A stretch of 52,218 nt of DNA from an uncultured Spartobacteria bacterium. GTDB lineage: Bacteria > Verrucomicrobiota > Verrucomicrobiia > Chthoniobacterales > UBA6821. Position 1 is the stretch's first letter; each line of letters starts with the position of its first letter. The notes under the pieces are model-generated. The model saw only the letters and a list, made by a program, of their open reading frames with translations, had not been told where the DNA came from and did not search any database. The translations under genes and the position numbers were made by a program. The stretch covers positions 1 through 52,218 of the forward strand of contig CAIJRY010000142.1 of assembly GCA_903823215.1 (NCBI GenBank). The letters run 5' to 3'. Below are positions 32,045-42,587 of the stretch, in pieces.

Positions 32045-32158
32045 ATGAAAGTACGAGCTTCCGTAAAACGCCTTTGCGAAACCTGCAAGATTGTCCGCCG
32101 CAACAATGTGGTGCGTGTTGTCTGCAAAAACCCCCGTCACAAACAACGCCAGGGCTAA
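32045..32158 (+). CDS. rpmJ: 50S ribosomal protein L36
   Basis: Not in the ORF track because it is too short. Translated by hand: [37 protein letters not shown] (37 aa), with the Cys/His zinc-ribbon pattern of L36. It sits between infA and rpsM as expected. Confidence 0.92.
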
Positions 32159-32193
32159 TTGCCACGGCATTCACACCATACAGAACCACGATC

Positions 32194-32571
32194 ATGCCAC
32201 GACTCCTCGGCGTAGAAATCCCCGGTGACAAGCGCATCGAAGCCTCGCTTGTTTACATTTACGGAATCGGTCCCAAAACCTCAAAGCGCGTCCTTGAGCA
32301 AGCCAATATCAATCCGGATATCCGAGCCAAGGAACTCTCTCCCGAGCAGATAGGTTCCCTCATCTCAGCCATCACGGCGCAGAAGGTGACAATCGAAGGC
32401 GATCTCCGCAGAGAGATCCAAGGCAACCTGAAGAGGCTTCAGGCAATCAACTGCTACCGTGGCCTGCGCCACCGTCGTGGCCTTCCCGTTCGCGGTCAGC
32501 GCACCCAGACCAATGCTCGCACCCGCAAGGGACCGCGTAAGACCGTGGGTGTTGTCCGTGCCAAGGATTAA
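32194..32571 (+). CDS. rpsM: 30S ribosomal protein S13
   Basis: [25 protein letters not shown]...S..........R...L.......[22 protein letters not shown]. The start is trimmed to ATG 32194. Confidence 0.95.
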
Positions 32572-32611: not shown

Positions 32612-33247
32612 ATGTCCGAAGAAACGCCCGTCACACCAGAAACTCCCGCTCCAGCATCCGAGAGCCTCTCGCAGGATGCAAAACGCCACGAGGAGACTAA
32701 GGAGCATCATCCGGTAGCGGCTGAAGCCGCACAAGCTGCAGCCGTCGCCGAGACAGCCGCAGCTCCCAAAGCCGAAAAGCCAAAGACCAAGAAGAGCAAG
32801 GAAAAGAAGACAGAGGAAGCTGCTCCTGCTGCTCCTGTGAGCTTCAATCTTGATGATCCGATCGAGCCGCCCAAGATTGTCAAAGCCAAGGGCAGTAAGA
32901 ATATCACGCACGGCATCGCTCATGTGCAGGCTACCTTCAACAACACCATCGTCAGCATCACCGACCTTCGCGGAGCGGTGATCGGATGGGCAAGTGCCGG
33001 CAAGATGGGATTCAAGGGATCCCGTAAGAGCACTGCCTACGCAGCCCAGATGGTTGCTCAGGATGCCTGCCGTCAGGCCATGGGTCACGGTCTCAAGGAA
33101 GTCCAGGTCCGTGTCAAAGGTCCGGGATCAGGCCGTGAATCCGCTGTTCGTGCCATGCAGGCCATCGGACTTGAAATCTCTGTCATTCAGGATGTGACCC
33201 CGGTTCCACATAACGGATGCCGCCCTCCCAAACAGCGCCGCGTCTAA
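32612..33247 (+). CDS. rpsK: 30S ribosomal protein S11 with a long low-complexity N-terminal extension
   Basis: The conserved core begins near residue 98 ([21 protein letters not shown]....[17 protein letters not shown]) and ends ...[15 protein letters not shown]. It is preceded by about 80 aa rich in Ala, Glu, Lys and Pro, in frame from ATG 32612. Confidence 0.9.
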
Positions 33248-33972: not shown

Positions 33973-35184
33973 TTGCTTCGCATGAGAAGGATGTACCACA
34001 ATGCATGGTTAATACTGCCTCCGCATCTGCGTTCGGGGGAGGGATTTCTCTCGGAAGAGGATGGTCTTATTCGGAGTGTGGTAATCAGGGCAGGGAAAGC
34101 TGATTTTGAAGATCTACTGAGCCTGGAGAAGCAACTTTGTGATGAGGAGATAGATTGTCAGGGTGATTATCTCTCGCCTGGCCTGATTGATCTTCACTGC
34201 CATGGAGCCCTTGGCCGAGACACCATGGAAGCCACTCAGGAGGCCTTTGATGTCATCCTGAATTATCACGCGACTCGTGGAACGACACTTGCCGTTTTGA
34301 CCACTGTGGCGGCCTCTTTAAGCGAAATCCAAGGTGTGCTATCCCTTGCAGAGAGGTATCAACAAGAAAGGAACAATCCGTTTTTCGCAGGAATTCATCT
34401 GGAAGGCCCCTATTTCTCTCCTCTCCGTCTGGGAGCGCATCGACGGGCGATGCTGCGTCAGCCCTCTCCAAAAGAAACAGAAGCGCTGTTGAAGTATGCC
34501 GGGGTGATTTTGAGAATCACACTTGCTCCGGAACTTCCTGGAGTCATCGAATCCATACCGTTCCTTTTACGCCACGGGATCGCTGTCAGTGCTGGACATT
34601 CCAATGCCATGCATGATGAGGCACTCGCTGGATTTTCCGCCGGGATCACGCAAGTCACCCATCTCTATAACTGCATGTCTTCGCTTCATAGTAAAAAGGG
34701 ACGCCGCTTCACGGGATTAGCAGAGGCGGCTCTGACGACGCCGGGTGTGCTTTGCGAGGTGATTGCCGATGGGAGGCACCTCTCGCCGACATTGCTCCGT
34801 CTGGCCTGGCTTGCCAAGGGATGGGAAGGGATCGCAATTGTTTCCGATGCGACTGCGGGAGCAGGCCTCTCGGAAGGAGCTTCGTTTCAACTTGGCGGCT
34901 TACTCTGCAGGATTCAACAGGGAGAGGCATTGACGGGGGTGGGAGAGGATCAACGACTGGCGGGTAGCACCATCGGAATGATCGACGGTGTGAGGGGAAT
35001 GGTGGAGGGGGCTCAGTCTTCGCTTGAGGAGGCGGTGGCAATGGCTTCACTCGTCCCTGCACGAGCCTTGAATCTTGAACATTCAAGAGGATCACTTGAA
35101 GTGGGAAAGAGGAGCGATCTGATACGATTTAGGGAAGATTGGCAGATTCGGGGTGTTTGGTCCGCAGGAGAAAAGATCGTTTGA
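33973..35184 (+). CDS. nagA: N-acetylglucosamine-6-phosphate deacetylase
   Basis: GLIDLHCHGA, IHLEGPYFSP, AGHSNA, THLYNCMS and VSDA blocks of the amidohydrolase NagA family. The start is ambiguous: TTG 33973, ATG 33982 or ATG 33991. Confidence 0.85.
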   Translation: MLRMRRMYHNAWLILPPHLRSGEGFLSEEDGLIRSVVIRAGKADFEDLLSLEKQLCDEEIDCQGDYLSPGLIDLHCHGALGRDTMEATQEAFDVILNYHATRGTTLAVLTTVAASLSEIQGVLSLAERYQQERNNPFFAGIHLEGPYFSPLRLGAHRRAMLRQPSPKETEALLKYAGVILRITLAPELPGVIESIPFLLRHGIAVSAGHSNAMHDEALAGFSAGITQVTHLYNCMSSLHSKKGRRFTGLAEAALTTPGVLCEVIADGRHLSPTLLRLAWLAKGWEGIAIVSDATAGAGLSEGASFQLGGLLCRIQQGEALTGVGEDQRLAGSTIGMIDGVRGMVEGAQSSLEEAVAMASLVPARALNLEHSRGSLEVGKRSDLIRFREDWQIRGVWSAGEKIV

Positions 35185-35324: not shown

Positions 35325-37784
35325 TTGCGACTCTGGTTTCTTGTGCCGGTGTTCCTGCTCGGGATTGCCTGCCTGTCCGCTCTTGTGGGATACGGATGGC
35401 TTGTCTCGGAGTTTTCCGCCAAGGCTGAGTCCTTTGATCTGAGCAAGCTTCCCAAGATGGAATCGGCCAGTGTGATTCTGGATCGTTCGGGTCAGCAAAT
35501 GGGAAAAATTTTCATTCAGAACAGACTTCCGGTTGCCTATGATCAGATTCCCAAGGAGATGGTCAATGCCGTGGTCGCGGAGGAGGATAATCGTTTCTTT
35601 GAGCATCATGGGGTCGACTACTATGGTGTGCTTCGAGCAGCCATCAGTAACTATCGTCAGGGAAGGGTGAAGCAGGGAGCCAGCACGGTGACGCAGCAGT
35701 TGGCGCGTAATTCCTTTGATCTGAAAGAGAGAACCTTCCGGCGCAAGATACTGGAAATGTTTGTGGCACGGCGGATCGAGGACCACCTCACCAAAGATAA
35801 AATCATGGAGCTCTATCTGAACCGTGTCTATTTCGGCAGTGGTTTCTATGGCGTGGAAGCTGCGGCGCGGGGATACTTTGGAAAATCCGCCAAGGGAATG
35901 AGTGTGGGAGAGTGCGCGATGCTGGCGGGATTACTAAAAAGTCCCAACGGACTCTCTCCGTGGAATAATCCCACAGGAGCAAAAAAAGTCCGTGATTTCG
36001 TACTTACCAGAATGAGGGAGATGCGATTGATCACCCGGGAGGAACTCGAGAGCGCACTGGAACTTCCCCTTTCCGTGCGCAAGAGAACCAATCCGAACAG
36101 AGTTTCCTATGCGATCGACCTGGTGCGTCAGCAGGCGATTGCGGCGCTCGGATACGACAGGGCAATGAATGAAGGGGTCAGGATTCAGACCACCTTCGAT
36201 GCCAAGATGCAGATGGCTGCTGAACACTCCCTCCATGCACATCTTGATTCCGTCGAACATCAGCCTGGGTACAATCATCTGACCTACGAACGCTACCGTC
36301 AGATCAATCAGAATCTGGAGGTAGCGGCACAAAGGGGAGAGCCTGTCACCATGCCTGCTCCTGGGTATCTGCAGGGAGCCGTGCTCGCAGTCGATAACAA
36401 CACGGGGGGTATCTTAGCTCTGGCCGGTGGCCGTGATTTTCTTCACAGCGAATACAACCGCGCTCTTCAGGGGCGACGACCTCCCGGCACCCTCTTCACG
36501 CCGATGCTCGCAGCCGCAGCCTATGCCAAGGGAATCTTCCCCGGTGATACCGTCGATGATGCCTGCATCGATAATCGGTTTGTCATGATCGGGGGAGACA
36601 GTGGAATCCTCGGAGAGTGGGGTGTGGAGAGGTCGGATAATGAATATGAAGGCCCGATGCCCTCCAGTGAAGCTGTTGCCCGAGGTAAGAATGCCGCCGT
36701 GGTGCGACTCGGGTTTATGACCGGGCTGGATGCGGTGGAAAAATTCTGCAAGGACGCTGGCATCCGCTCCCCGCTTCGTGATGTTGCTAATGCCTATCTC
36801 GGTTCCAGTGAAATGACCCTCGATGAACTCACCCTTGCCTACACGGTATTTCCCGGAGGAGGGAGTCGTCCTGCGAAGCTCTTCACGATCACCCGTATCA
36901 CTGATCCCGAGGGGAACCTGTTGTACGAGAATCCTGTGACCCGCATTCCTGTCATTTCTGCTGAGGCTGCCTATCAGGTGCATACAGTGCTTGAGAAAGC
37001 TCTGCACAAAGCCTATTCCCCGGAGGCTACCAGCGCGGGGATTGCCACCAATTCTCCATTGGCTGGCAAATCAGGCACGGCTTATGATTTTACCGACACA
37101 TGGTTTATCGGCTACTCAAGTGCCGTGACTTGCGGTGTCTGGGTGGGATTTGACAAACCGACCAAAATCTATCGTGGGGCCTTTGGCAAGGATCTGGCTC
37201 TGCCGATCTGGGCACAAGTGATGAATGCTTCGCTGCCACTTTTCCCAACACGCATTCTGCAGGTTCCTCAGGGGCTCAAGCCTGTTGAAATCTGCCGTAC
37301 TTCAGGGCTTCTACCTGCTCAGGAGTGTAGAAAAACACATGGCCTGATCGCCACCGAGTATGCCACAGCCGAAGAGGTGCCCACAGTGCCGTGTGATATC
37401 CATGGAGGAGGAGTAAGGGATTACAGCAAGGGAATTGATCAGGAGGAATGGCCGCGTGCAGCCGCCGTTATCGACCTCACGCGCATTCGACCAGTGACCG
37501 TGAACGCTCCTACCTTGCTTGCTCAAAACGACCTCTATCGCTCCGTGAATCCCGTGATGCGTGGAGGGTCGGTGGATGAATCGGGGATTAAGGTTGCGCG
37601 TGCCACAACCCCGGATGGAAAAGATCCGGATGCTAACGCCACCAATCAGGTGTCAACCAATGCTCCTGTTGCCAAACCGGGTGAAGAAAAAGAAGTCCGC
37701 AAAGCGGAGGCCGTTCGGCCGATGGATTTGCCAACCGGAGCCCCGGTGATGGCATTGCCCGCCCCCAAACCCGCCGACTTTTAA
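35325..37784 (+). CDS. mrcA: class A penicillin-binding protein (GT51 glycosyltransferase plus a transpeptidase-like domain with a degenerate active site)
   Basis: N-terminal TM anchor. GT51 motifs EDNRFFEHHG, GASTVTQQLARN, RRKILEM and KDKIMELYLNRVYFG are present. In the transpeptidase region only KSGT is retained. The positions expected for SxxK and SxN read TLFT and GKN. TTG start at 35325. Confidence 0.85.
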   Translation: MRLWFLVPVFLLGIACLSALVGYGWLVSEFSAKAESFDLSKLPKMESASVILDRSGQQMGKIFIQNRLPVAYDQIPKEMVNAVVAEEDNRFFEHHGVDYYGVLRAAISNYRQGRVKQGASTVTQQLARNSFDLKERTFRRKILEMFVARRIEDHLTKDKIMELYLNRVYFGSGFYGVEAAARGYFGKSAKGMSVGECAMLAGLLKSPNGLSPWNNPTGAKKVRDFVLTRMREMRLITREELESALELPLSVRKRTNPNRVSYAIDLVRQQAIAALGYDRAMNEGVRIQTTFDAKMQMAAEHSLHAHLDSVEHQPGYNHLTYERYRQINQNLEVAAQRGEPVTMPAPGYLQGAVLAVDNNTGGILALAGGRDFLHSEYNRALQGRRPPGTLFTPMLAAAAYAKGIFPGDTVDDACIDNRFVMIGGDSGILGEWGVERSDNEYEGPMPSSEAVARGKNAAVVRLGFMTGLDAVEKFCKDAGIRSPLRDVANAYLGSSEMTLDELTLAYTVFPGGGSRPAKLFTITRITDPEGNLLYENPVTRIPVISAEAAYQVHTVLEKALHKAYSPEATSAGIATNSPLAGKSGTAYDFTDTWFIGYSSAVTCGVWVGFDKPTKIYRGAFGKDLALPIWAQVMNASLPLFPTRILQVPQGLKPVEICRTSGLLPAQECRKTHGLIATEYATAEEVPTVPCDIHGGGVRDYSKGIDQEEWPRAAAVIDLTRIRPVTVNAPTLLAQNDLYRSVNPVMRGGSVDESGIKVARATTPDGKDPDANATNQVSTNAPVAKPGEEKEVRKAEAVRPMDLPTGAPVMALPAPKPADF

Positions 37785-40642: not shown

Positions 40643-42358
40643 TCAGGGAAGCGCAAACCGTGCCGTGAAGGCGGTGACTTCCTTGCGCAGCGTGGCAAGA
40701 GCAACCTCGTCATGACGGGCCTGAAGTCCTGCATGAATGAAGTCGGCGACCTGCATCATCTCCTCTTCCTTGAGACCGCGTGTTGTCATCGCGGGTGTAC
40801 CCAGACGGATGCCTCCGGTCTTGGTGATCGGTTCCGTATCAAAAGGGATGGCATTTTTGTTAACTGTGATAGCGGCCTTGTCGAGCGTCTCCTGGGCTTC
40901 AAGTCCGTTGATGCCGTTGGGGCGAAGGTCAACAAGGAGGACATGATTGTCAGTTCCCCCCGAACTGATCGTGTAACCGAGGAAGGAGAGGCGGGCGGCG
41001 AGAGCCTTGGCATTAAACACGATCTGCCTCGCGTAGTCCTTGAACTCAGGGGCAAGAGCCTCGTGGAAGCAGACTGCCTTTGCTGCAATGACCTGCATGA
41101 GCGGCCCCCCCTGCACGCCGGGGAAGACCTGTCCGTCAATCTTCTTGGCATGTTGCTCCTTGCAGAGAATGAGGCCTGAGCGAGGGCCGCGCAGACTTTT
41201 GTGAGTCGTCGTCGTCACGAAATCAGCATAGGGAATCGGACTGGGATGAACGCCACCTGCAACCAGTCCCGCAATGTGGGCCATGTCGATGAAAAGGTAT
41301 GCTCCCACTGAATCCGCGATCTCGCGAAGACGGGGGAAGTCAATCGTGCGGGGATAGGCGGAGGCCCCGGCGGTGATCATCCTGGGCCTCACTTCAAGCG
41401 CCTGCGCAGCAAGGGCGTCGTAGTCGATGCGCCCATCAATTTGTGATACGCCGTAATGCACGACCTCGTAAAGTTTACCAGAGAAGTTGGCCTTGTGCCC
41501 GTGGGTGAGGTGACCGCCGTGGGAGAGATCCATCGTCAGGATGCGATCCCCGGGTTTCAGAACGCTGAAGTAGACAGCCATATTTGCCTGGCTGCCACTA
41601 TGCGGCTGGACATTGGCGTGATCAGCCCCAAAGAGTTGTTTGGCTCGCTCGATGGCGAGAGTCTCCACCACATCAACGTATTCACAGCCACCATACCAAC
41701 GGCGGCCCGGGTAGCCTTCAGCATACTTGTTGGTGAGGCAGGATCCCTGGGCTTCCATCACGGCGGCACTAGTGAAGTTTTCCGAGGCAATGAGTTCGAT
41801 ATGTTCGATCTGGCGATGGCGTTCGGCAGCAATGGCCTCCGCAATCTGCGGATCTGTTGCTGCAAGTGGACTGGTGGTACTAGGTGTCATTGTTGATAAA
41901 TAATCTAATGGAGTGGATTGATCGACAAAAGTCAGGATTTGAGCGAGAGCACTTTTCATGACATCGCGGCAGCGTTTGTAGGTAGCAACACTTTGGCCTA
42001 TGGGATCAGGGATGTCACCACCGCTACGGGTGAATTCCCCAAACAACCGAACTTTTGAGTTATGCTCGGGGAAAAAAAGAGAAAGGAGTCGCTTGTGATC
42101 TTTCGTCATCACGATCACATGTGTGCAGTCATCCAGCAATTCCTCCGTGACAGGCTGACTGCGAAATCCGCGCAGATCGATTCCTTCCTCATCCAGCGCA
42201 ATGATCGCAGCATGACTGGCAGAGCCACCTTTCTGCGCATGGACTCCGGCTGATAGTACAGTGATGTCCCTGCGACCCGCAGCAAAATGCCTCATCAGTC
42301 CCTCCGCCATAGGGCTTCGGCAAATATTGCCTGTACAGACAAAGAGAATTTGCTTCAT
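40643..42358 (-). CDS. glyA: single ORF fusing a low-molecular-weight protein-tyrosine/arginine phosphatase domain to serine hydroxymethyltransferase
   Basis: The N-terminal part, [17 protein letters not shown] (CX5R(S/T) P-loop) plus DIPDPIG, marks an LMW-PTP. From residue about 157, [13 protein letters not shown]...[32 protein letters not shown] and [12 protein letters not shown] mark SHMT. There is no stop between the two. An internal ATG at 41890 would give a normal 415-aa GlyA. Confidence 0.8.
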
Positions 42359-42587
42359 ACCGGATGCTCTTGAACTGGCAGGTTGATTGACATGAGAGCA
42401 CACGATAAGAGTTGCTCCGTTGAAGTCAATGCGTCAGGTTGACGCTAGAACAAAGAATAATACACTGGTATGTTATGTCGCAAGCATAGTGCATTTTAAA
42501 TGTTAGTAAAATCTCCCTCTAGCGCGATTGGGTAATTTTTTTAATGACACAAGAGGATAGGTATGATAGGTTACACGCTTATCTGAT

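Follow-up and report, generated by a model that had tools for sequence, protein, structure and literature searches.

The Locus and Its Domain Layout

We analyzed a stretch of 52,218 nucleotides from an uncultured Spartobacteria bacterium (contig CAIJRY010000142.1; the whole stretch is called the window below), which carries on its forward strand a gene whose product is a penicillin-binding protein (PBP) of class A with intact glycosyltransferase motifs and a degenerate transpeptidase site. Textbooks present class A PBPs as bifunctional enzymes, and these are classic targets of beta-lactams. The source genome is metagenome-assembled (2.3 Mb, 260 contigs), and its closest relatives are labelled Spartobacteria, Chthoniobacterales or Terrimicrobiaceae. 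An 813-residue database protein (P0002) is 100% identical to the product of the open reading frame 35325..37784.

The membrane anchor, the GT51 domain with five motifs and the catalytic Glu, the C-terminal PF00905 fold and the K[T/S]G motif on strand beta3 (K582-S-G) place the protein among the class A PBPs. The nucleophilic Ser and the general-base Lys of the SxxK motif are absent, and the SxN motif has lost its Ser while its Asn is present. The features of the gene, in window coordinates and residues of the 819-residue protein, are as follows.

35325..37784, plus strand: whole gene, stop included (819 residues, TTG start); class A PBP paralogue, transpeptidase site degenerate
35340..35429, plus strand: N-terminal membrane anchor helix, residues 6-35 (AlphaFold2 (AF2) secondary structure H6-35 and hydrophobic sequence)
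35496..36014, plus strand: GT51 peptidoglycan glycosyltransferase domain, residues 58-230, motifs intact (PF00912, 211.8 bits, profile positions 4-177 of 178)
35583..35612, plus strand: GT51 motif 1, EDNRFFEHHG, residues 87-96, with catalytic Glu87
35739..35756, plus strand: GT51 motif 3, RRKILE, residues 139-144, with the second catalytic Glu144
36366..37232, plus strand: transpeptidase-fold domain, putative pseudo-enzyme, residues 348-636 (PF00905, AF2 domain model, Foldseek, dN/dS)
36489..36500, plus strand: degenerate motif 1, which reads T389-L-F-T392 where canonical proteins have S-x-x-K and opens helix alpha2 (AF2 helix from residue 389)
36570..36629, plus strand: clade-specific loop D416-N-R-F-V-M-I-G-G-D-S-G-I-L-G-E-W-G-V-E435, inserted directly ahead of the Trp that is conserved in the canonical WxPxN element
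36684..36692, plus strand: degenerate motif 2, G454-K-N (454-456) in place of S-x-N, Asn kept
37068..37076, plus strand: motif 3, kept as K582-S-G (582-584), on strand beta3 (AF2 strand E580-585)
37272..37409, plus strand: small C-terminal beta sub-domain with conserved C657, C668, C690 and H693 (AF2 strands E652-657 and E675-680; near-invariant columns)
37419..37781, plus strand: predicted disordered C-terminal tail, residues 699-819 (pLDDT <50)
Within the tail: conserved islands EWPRAAA (708-714), PTLL..D.Y (729-738), EVRKAEAVRPMD (790-801) and the C-terminal LPAPKPADF

Two further GT51 motifs, GASTVTQQ and KDKIMELYLN, begin at residues 118 and 157. In the GT51 family the Glu at the position of Glu87 is catalytic (E233 in Escherichia coli PBP1b). 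The Pfam match to PF00905 is weak but significant (54.7 bits against a cut-off of 22.1) and covers residues 351-602.

Motif Register of the Transpeptidase-Like Domain

A preliminary description of this stretch, made by eye against motifs of E. coli PBP1A, had claimed that all GT51 motifs are present and that the transpeptidase site is degenerate. All the strings it quoted were found at their positions, both in the GT51 domain (EDNRFFEHHG at residue 87, GASTVTQQ at 118, RRKILE at 139, KDKIMELYLN at 157) and in the transpeptidase-like domain (RRPPGTLFTP at residue 384, which puts T389 to T392 at nucleotides 36489-36500; GKN at the SxN site, nucleotides 36684-36692; the retained KSG at K582, nucleotides 37068-37076). 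The register, which had been open to error, was upheld by three phmmer alignments to PBP1a structures and by MAFFT, with which the protein was aligned to 65 class A PBPs of the canonical type.

The phmmer search was run against all PDB chains, and the best matches were PBP1a of Pseudomonas aeruginosa (4oon), Acinetobacter baumannii (3udf) and Haemophilus influenzae (5u2g). At motif 1, 'rrppgtlftp' aligned to 'krqpgssfkp', 'wrqpgstikp' and 'lvqvgssikp', respectively. At motif 2, 'argkn' aligned to 'yksrn', 'ylsrn' and 'gqskn' in the same order, and at motif 3 'gksgt' aligned to 'gktgt'. The columns of T389, T392, G454, N456 and K582 hold S in 65/65, K in 65/65, S in 65/65, N in 64/65 and K in 64/65 of the canonical proteins. 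The AF2 models match the canonical topology, with Thr389 opening helix alpha2, GKN lying between two helices and KSG on a beta strand. No alternative SxxK was found elsewhere in the PF00905 domain, either in the three structure alignments or in the alignment with the 65 canonical proteins. The transpeptidase-like domain is probably inactive, because the nucleophilic Ser is replaced by Thr, the general-base Lys by Thr and the Ser of SxN by Gly.

The Degraded Clade

We searched 1.84 billion representatives exhaustively with HMMER, and the best 150 clusters at 50% identity were taken. Many of them read G-T-x-x-[not K]-P when aligned. A midpoint-rooted FastTree phylogeny of the 141 full-length representatives among them separated, with support 100, 65 canonical proteins from a clade of 76 members that we call the degraded clade. 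This clade is defined by its side of the split, the loop DNRxVMIGGxxGILGEWGxE, Thr or Ser at position 1 of motif 1 and the usual loss of the motif-1 Lys, and the studied protein has all of these characters. The states of motif 1 and of the single catalytic positions among the 76 members are listed below.

Motif 1, Thr at position 1, no Lys: 48 of 76
Motif 1, Ser at position 1, no Lys: 15 of 76
Motif 1, TxxK: 6 of 76
Complete SxxK / SxN / KTG (P0126): 1 of 76
Other motif 1 states: 6 of 76
Position 1 of motif 1: T54, S16 of 76
Motif-1 Lys: K8 of 76 (otherwise L28, T19, F7, I6, V4, A3); Lys in 65/65 of the sister clade
SxN Ser: S39, G30 of 76
SxN Asn: N52 of 76
KTG Lys: K57 of 76
KTG Thr/Ser: T44, S14 of 76
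KTG Gly: G71 of 76
Thr following KTG: T64 of 76

At the corresponding catalytic positions the counts in the canonical clade are at least 63/65. The Gly, Trp and Pro columns that define the fold are about as conserved in the degraded clade as in the canonical clade. Well-supported branches force at least 12 independent changes of the state with Thr and without Lys. In live PBPs, the Asn of SxN, the KTG residues and the following Thr contact the carboxylate and amide of the substrate, the stem peptide. The loss in the degraded clade is selective; that is, the general base is nearly always gone, whereas the substrate-contacting residues are lost less often.

In one member of the clade, a metagenomic representative (P0179, 941 residues; TxxV / GKN / KAG), a pedestal domain of the class B PBP type (PF03717, residues 94-270) is fused N-terminally to the GT51 domain and the apparently dead transpeptidase domain. 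This fusion points to the class B PBP / SEDS machinery as a partner of the degraded clade. A class-wide search with PF03717 gave no open frame longer than 988 residues among the 150 matches listed.

Conservation, Selection and Fold

The preliminary description had also asked whether orthologues carry the same substitutions, and they do, both in 121 homologues and in order-level orthologues. The 121 homologues, which are 58-100% identical to the protein, all have G-[T, with one M]-[LVI]-F-[T, with one A], then GKN, and then GK[SPTA]G. The Thr in the place of the nucleophile is strongly conserved across Chthoniobacterales, and in the alignment of orthologues from this order (46-100% identity) it is invariant. 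The motif-1 Lys position in these orthologues is T, V, A, Q or I, and K occurs once (L049, with GTAFKP, SKN and KTG). In the GT51 domain, E86, E87, D88, G118-Q125, R140, K141, E144, K157, N166 and R223 are invariant in 56 homologues.

We compared the divergence of the two class A paralogues across the same 20 genomes. Mean pairwise identity was 0.813 in the glycosyltransferase domain and 0.751 in the transpeptidase-like domain of this paralogue, against 0.806 and 0.766 in the corresponding domains of the canonical paralogue. The ratio of transpeptidase to glycosyltransferase divergence was 1.32 in this paralogue and 1.24 in the canonical one. The ratio of non-synonymous to synonymous substitution rates (dN/dS) was estimated by the Nei-Gojobori method from unsaturated pairs only (dS 0.32-0.59). 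It was lowest in the glycosyltransferase domain (0.007-0.047), followed by the transpeptidase-like domain (0.026-0.080) and the C-terminal tail (0.047-0.109). Purifying selection on the transpeptidase-like domain is as strong as that on the corresponding domain of the catalytic paralogue.

The AF2 model of the domain alone, built from 68 sequences, reached a pLDDT of 89.3 and a pTM of 0.90. In Foldseek it superposed on PBP1a of A. baumannii and PBP1b of E. coli, with TMq of 0.81-0.85 and root-mean-square deviations of 2.7-3.5 A; PBP1a was the best match (0.85, 2.7-2.8 A). The full-length model was moderate (pLDDT 69, key loops <50). Because of the dN/dS values, the paralogue-like identity and the match of the AF2 fold, the transpeptidase-like domain has the fold and the constraint typical of a working domain. 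The loss of its motifs is neither chance nor decay.

The Gained Loop and the C-Terminal Extension

The degraded clade is marked by an insertion between motifs 1 and 2, D416-N-R-x-V-M-I-G-G-x-x-G-I-L-G-E-W-G-x-E435. Within the clade, G427 and E431 are present in 76/76 members and W432 in 75/76. Most canonical proteins (77-98%) have gaps at the inserted columns, and the canonical clade reads W-x-P-x-N at this site (P 61/65, N 56/65). In structures of Streptococcus pneumoniae PBP1a and PBP1b, the Trp of the WxPxN element is reported to form part of the wall of the catalytic cleft. A search of species-representative genomes with nothing but the patterns GILGEWGxE and [ILM]DNRxV[MG][IV]GG recovered at least 554 confirmed relatives. 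The loop is also found in P0126, the sole clade member with a complete catalytic set; therefore, the insertion preceded the catalytic losses.

A C-terminal extension of about 180 residues, absent from the canonical paralogue, consists of a small beta unit followed by the disordered tail of about 120 residues. The canonical paralogue ends at about residue 642, right after its transpeptidase domain. The islands of the tail have the consensus EWPRAAA, PTLL..D.Y, EVRKAE.V.P.D and C-terminal LPAPKPxxF across relatives, and a motif survey found LPAPKP and GDDPY also in the Akkermansia protein. The residues C657, C668, C690 and H693 of the beta unit (window 37293-37403, residues 657-693) form a candidate disulfide or metal site.

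Comparison with Known Systems

The best sequence and structure matches of the studied protein are PBP1A-family proteins (3UDF, 4OON, 5U2G). They share with it the layout of anchor, GT51 domain, linker and PF00905 fold, and all GT51 motifs. The studied protein differs from them in that both catalytic residues of SxxK, Ser and Lys, and the SxN Ser are replaced, and in that it has the clade loop and the disordered tail. Gaps in the phmmer alignments show that an insert of about 100 residues between the glycosyltransferase and transpeptidase domains of PBP1a is missing here; we take this insert to be the ODD docking domain. The score against the PBP1A family model TIGR02074 was 466.3 bits, below its curated cut-off of 508.75, so that by NCBI's rule these proteins do not receive the name PBP1A, and the score against the PBP1B model of NCBIfam was far below the cut-off of that model.

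We also considered other identities. PBP1C/PbpC was rejected on its scores (385.8 against a cut-off of 900 for NF051885; 294.7 against 494.2 for TIGR02073) and on the lack of a PF06832 match. Schiffer and Holtje reportedly found in 1999 that E. coli PBP1C binds few beta-lactams and seems to be mainly a glycosyltransferase. In E. coli PBP1C, however, SxxK, SxN and KTG are all kept, and its C-terminus bears a PF06832 domain, which the studied protein does not have. MtgA was rejected as well (148.9 bits against 182.65 for TIGR02070), and the studied protein has a further 590 residues that include the PBP fold. The presumed net activity would be alike, namely glycan polymerization without cross-linking. 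Unlike MtgA, which has no transpeptidase-fold domain, the studied protein retains, constrains and elaborates this domain.

Hugonnet et al. are said to have described in 2016 a beta-lactam bypass in E. coli, in which the glycosyltransferase of PBP1b alone supplies the strands and the L,D-transpeptidase YcbB cross-links them. That bypass is induced and uses a bifunctional enzyme, whereas here the loss of transpeptidase activity would be hard-wired.

Class B PBPs that were made inactive, by engineering or conditionally, still support division as scaffolds, as in Bacillus subtilis PBP2b, Clostridioides difficile SpoVD and PBP3 (PMC12516126). They are a precedent for a PBP transpeptidase domain that is needed for its presence and not for its catalysis. 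In contrast to these cases, the degraded clade is a natural class A lineage with a fixed loss.

The public annotation of the family is inconsistent, with names such as 'penicillin-binding protein 1A', 'membrane carboxypeptidase' and 'transglycosylase domain-containing protein'. The literature that we searched, on peptidoglycan of Verrucomicrobia and the PVC group (Planctomycetes, Verrucomicrobia and Chlamydiae), on bacteria lacking class A PBPs and on surveys of peptidoglycan synthases, contained no account of the family or its motifs. The lineage is apparently an undescribed, natural, ancient and selected pseudo-transpeptidase form of class A PBPs with a loop and a tail of its own.

Other Peptidoglycan Enzymes and Distribution

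The genome holds exactly two GT51 genes. The second, on another contig (C19), encodes a canonical class A PBP of 642 residues with RQIGSSAKP (SSAK), HSRN and KTGT. There are also two full-length class B PBPs (STFK / SSN or SCN / KTGT), a third that is split over two contigs, two SEDS genes and six YkuD L,D-transpeptidases. Cross-linking capacity is present elsewhere in the genome.

Among 41 related genomes, 39 had matches at E <= 1e-30, nearly all of them with both paralogues. In an even sample of 301 genomes across the phylum, the degraded form was found in 31, with at least 296 bits against the profile of its transpeptidase domain. A canonical class A PBP was also present in 30 of these 31 genomes (206-267 bits on the transpeptidase-domain profile). 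The 31 genomes come from the order of the window's source, from the family of Akkermansia and from one more family. Class A PBPs are absent altogether from most other families of the class, and the distribution is patchy and not phylum-wide. This agrees with a survey of bacteria lacking class A PBPs, in which all sampled PVC members except Akkermansia were classed as lacking one (PMC8406291).

Three degraded copies from Akkermansia muciniphila (WP_297546316.1, WP_354832613.1 and WP_146018712.1) are named 'transglycosylase domain-containing protein' in the database. The A. muciniphila copy reads TAIL or TAVL, SKI and KTG, beside a canonical paralogue with SLFK / SRN / KTG. An orthologue is also present in Chthoniobacter flavus Ellin428 (L132). 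One genome (G160) has three class A PBPs, which are a canonical one, a degraded one (TAFT / GRN / KTG) and a further degraded one (TAFL / GKT / WGG). In the third copy (L054, G160:C11:363134-365757), the Lys of KTG is changed to Trp.

We examined the number of YkuD genes in relation to these proteins. The count is 5-13 in genomes with the degraded protein and 1-2 in twelve relatives that lack GT51. There are 8 in a relative that has just a short GT51 gene and 5 in one that has just a canonical class A PBP. GT51 is missing from most families of the class, which have only 1-2 YkuD genes, whereas most GT51 genomes have 5-13; G072, which has only a short GT51 gene, has 1. The counts therefore do not support a link between L,D-transpeptidases and the degraded paralogue in particular, since the YkuD number follows the presence of GT51 as such, and the independent lineages behind it are few.

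Gene Neighborhood

The gene that precedes the PBP gene, at a distance of about 140 nucleotides and on the same strand, lies directly after rpsM-rpsK-rpsD.

33973-35184, plus strand: NagA-like amidohydrolase (PF01979)

Only in the genus does it stay next to the PBP gene, at 12 of the 95 loci with enough flank. Downstream, opcA/zwf were found at most at 20 of 109 loci. No neighboring gene is conserved across the order Chthoniobacterales.

Three other observations were made in the window. The ribosomal protein S11 gene (32612-33247, plus strand) encodes 211 residues, of which only residues 101-210 match Pfam S11; the first 100 or so are low-complexity and rich in Ala, Pro, Glu and Lys. The S13 open reading frame (32074-32571, plus strand; TTG start, 165 residues) matches Pfam S13 from residue 43 only, and its true start is probably further downstream. 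On the minus strand, at 40643-42403, an open reading frame of 586 residues encodes a domain of the low-molecular-weight phosphotyrosine-phosphatase type (PF01451, residues 19-156) that is followed in the same chain by a complete serine hydroxymethyltransferase (PF00464, residues 181-556).

Proposed Role and Alternative Explanations

The sequence evidence makes it likely that the protein is a membrane-anchored class A PBP paralogue that works as a glycan polymerase, in which the transpeptidase-like domain would be a non-catalytic module and cross-linking would be left to other enzymes. The proposal of the preliminary description, an intact glycosyltransferase joined to a pseudo-transpeptidase, is supported by the register, the orthologues, the clade-wide relaxation of the motifs and the separate canonical PBPs of the genome. 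Most likely, the GT51 domain would polymerize lipid II into glycan strands, and the transpeptidase-like domain, which we infer to be catalytically dead, would perform no D,D-transpeptidation and would not be acylated by beta-lactams.

The module would most likely position or hold nascent strands, stem peptides, or partner proteins or enzymes, and the conserved motifs in the disordered tail would probably help in this positioning. The domain retains residues that touch the stem peptide in live PBPs (the Asn of SxN, the Lys, Ser and Gly of motif 3 and the Thr after them), and it has acquired the nearly invariant loop, which is acidic and rich in Gly. A role of this kind may be called scaffolding or regulatory, as was first suggested. 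The cross-links could be made by the canonical class A PBP, by the class B PBPs with their SEDS partners, or by the six L,D-transpeptidases. A partnership with L,D-transpeptidases, by analogy with the PBP1b glycosyltransferase and YcbB, would be attractive but is not specifically supported, and we regard it only as a lead.

Several points weigh against this interpretation. The whole order has an invariant Thr in place of the nucleophile, and TxxK, SxN and KTG are all kept by several deep members of the clade; a Thr-based activity could thus have persisted in some lineages. The domain is constrained like a live enzyme, which residual or new catalysis would also predict. In the model of the domain alone, the new loop is an irregular coil of only moderate confidence (pLDDT about 63-66). 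The activity of the GT51 domain is itself read from its motifs only. At the loci compared (95 with enough flank upstream, 109 downstream), no conserved neighboring gene points to a partner or a ligand.

A more specific form of the proposal, which we regard as rather doubtful, is that the dead transpeptidase domain would act as a non-catalytic reader of stem peptides. It keeps Asn456, Lys582, Ser583, Gly584 and Thr585 and has specifically shed the Lys of motif 1, and the gained loop would lie beside the old cleft. With docking motifs in the tail, the protein would be a dedicated glycan polymerase that passes strands without cross-links on to L,D-transpeptidases or class B PBPs. More radically, the clade members with TxxK, SxN and KTG would be the first PBPs with a natural Thr nucleophile.

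It is unlikely that the transpeptidase-like domain has been neofunctionalized, with D416, N417, E431, W432 and E435 of the loop forming a new catalytic or ligand site unrelated to transpeptidation, for example a hydrolytic or glycan-binding one. Within the clade no feature of the domain is more conserved than the loop, canonical class A PBPs do not have it, and its presence in P0126 means that it arose before the catalytic residues were lost, all of which would suit a new function. However, no similarity to any known catalytic motif was found, Pfam gives PF00905 only in this region, and the modelled conformation is irregular. Moreover, a binding role for the loop is compatible with a non-catalytic module and needs no new chemistry.

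We consider it quite improbable that the domain is still a PBP-type enzyme with Thr389 as its nucleophile, possibly a beta-lactam-insensitive D,D-transpeptidase or carboxypeptidase that uses a base such as Lys582. This would be consistent with the invariant Thr of the order-level orthologues and the Thr majority in the clade (54/76, with Ser second at 16/76), with the retention of N456, K582, G584 and T585, and with purifying selection equal to that on the live paralogue. Some clade members with TxxK, SKN and KTG differ from canonical proteins only by the change of Ser to Thr. However, the studied protein has Thr for the general-base Lys and Gly for the SxN Ser, and in the clade the Lys position takes chemically unrelated residues. 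Position 1, which is Ser in 65/65 canonical proteins, interchanges freely between Ser and Thr in the clade, and this would suit a helix N-cap. We know of no natural Thr nucleophile in the PBP / serine beta-lactamase fold.

It is very unlikely that the whole protein is a non-enzymatic scaffold whose GT51 domain is inactive too despite its motifs, since the five motifs and both catalytic Glu are invariant, dN/dS is the lowest of the protein in this domain and the Pfam match of 211.8 bits is full-length. A sequencing or assembly error, which a fragmented metagenome-assembled genome of 260 contigs might suggest, and a decaying pseudogene are both excluded by motif states conserved in 121/121 homologues from independent assemblies, the order-wide Thr, the presence of the protein in the cultured C. 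flavus Ellin428 and A. muciniphila, the open reading frame, the paralogue-like divergence and dN/dS well below 1.

Significance

Many sources label these proteins 'penicillin-binding protein 1A', which is a systematic annotation issue. A published genetic system exists for A. muciniphila. Both A. muciniphila and C. flavus Ellin428 are cultured carriers, so the question is directly testable. If the protein is indeed a glycan polymerase with a non-catalytic transpeptidase-like module, the family would be a natural experiment on the non-catalytic roles of the transpeptidase domain, such as positioning, regulation and substrate hand-over, on which engineered Ser-to-Ala mutants give only indirect information. 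If the module is a reader of stem peptides, Verrucomicrobia, A. muciniphila among them, would have a hard-wired route to peptidoglycan whose polymerase is itself no target of beta-lactams. With a non-catalytic module of whichever function, part of the peptidoglycan polymerization in Verrucomicrobia, including A. muciniphila, would not be directly inhibited by beta-lactams.

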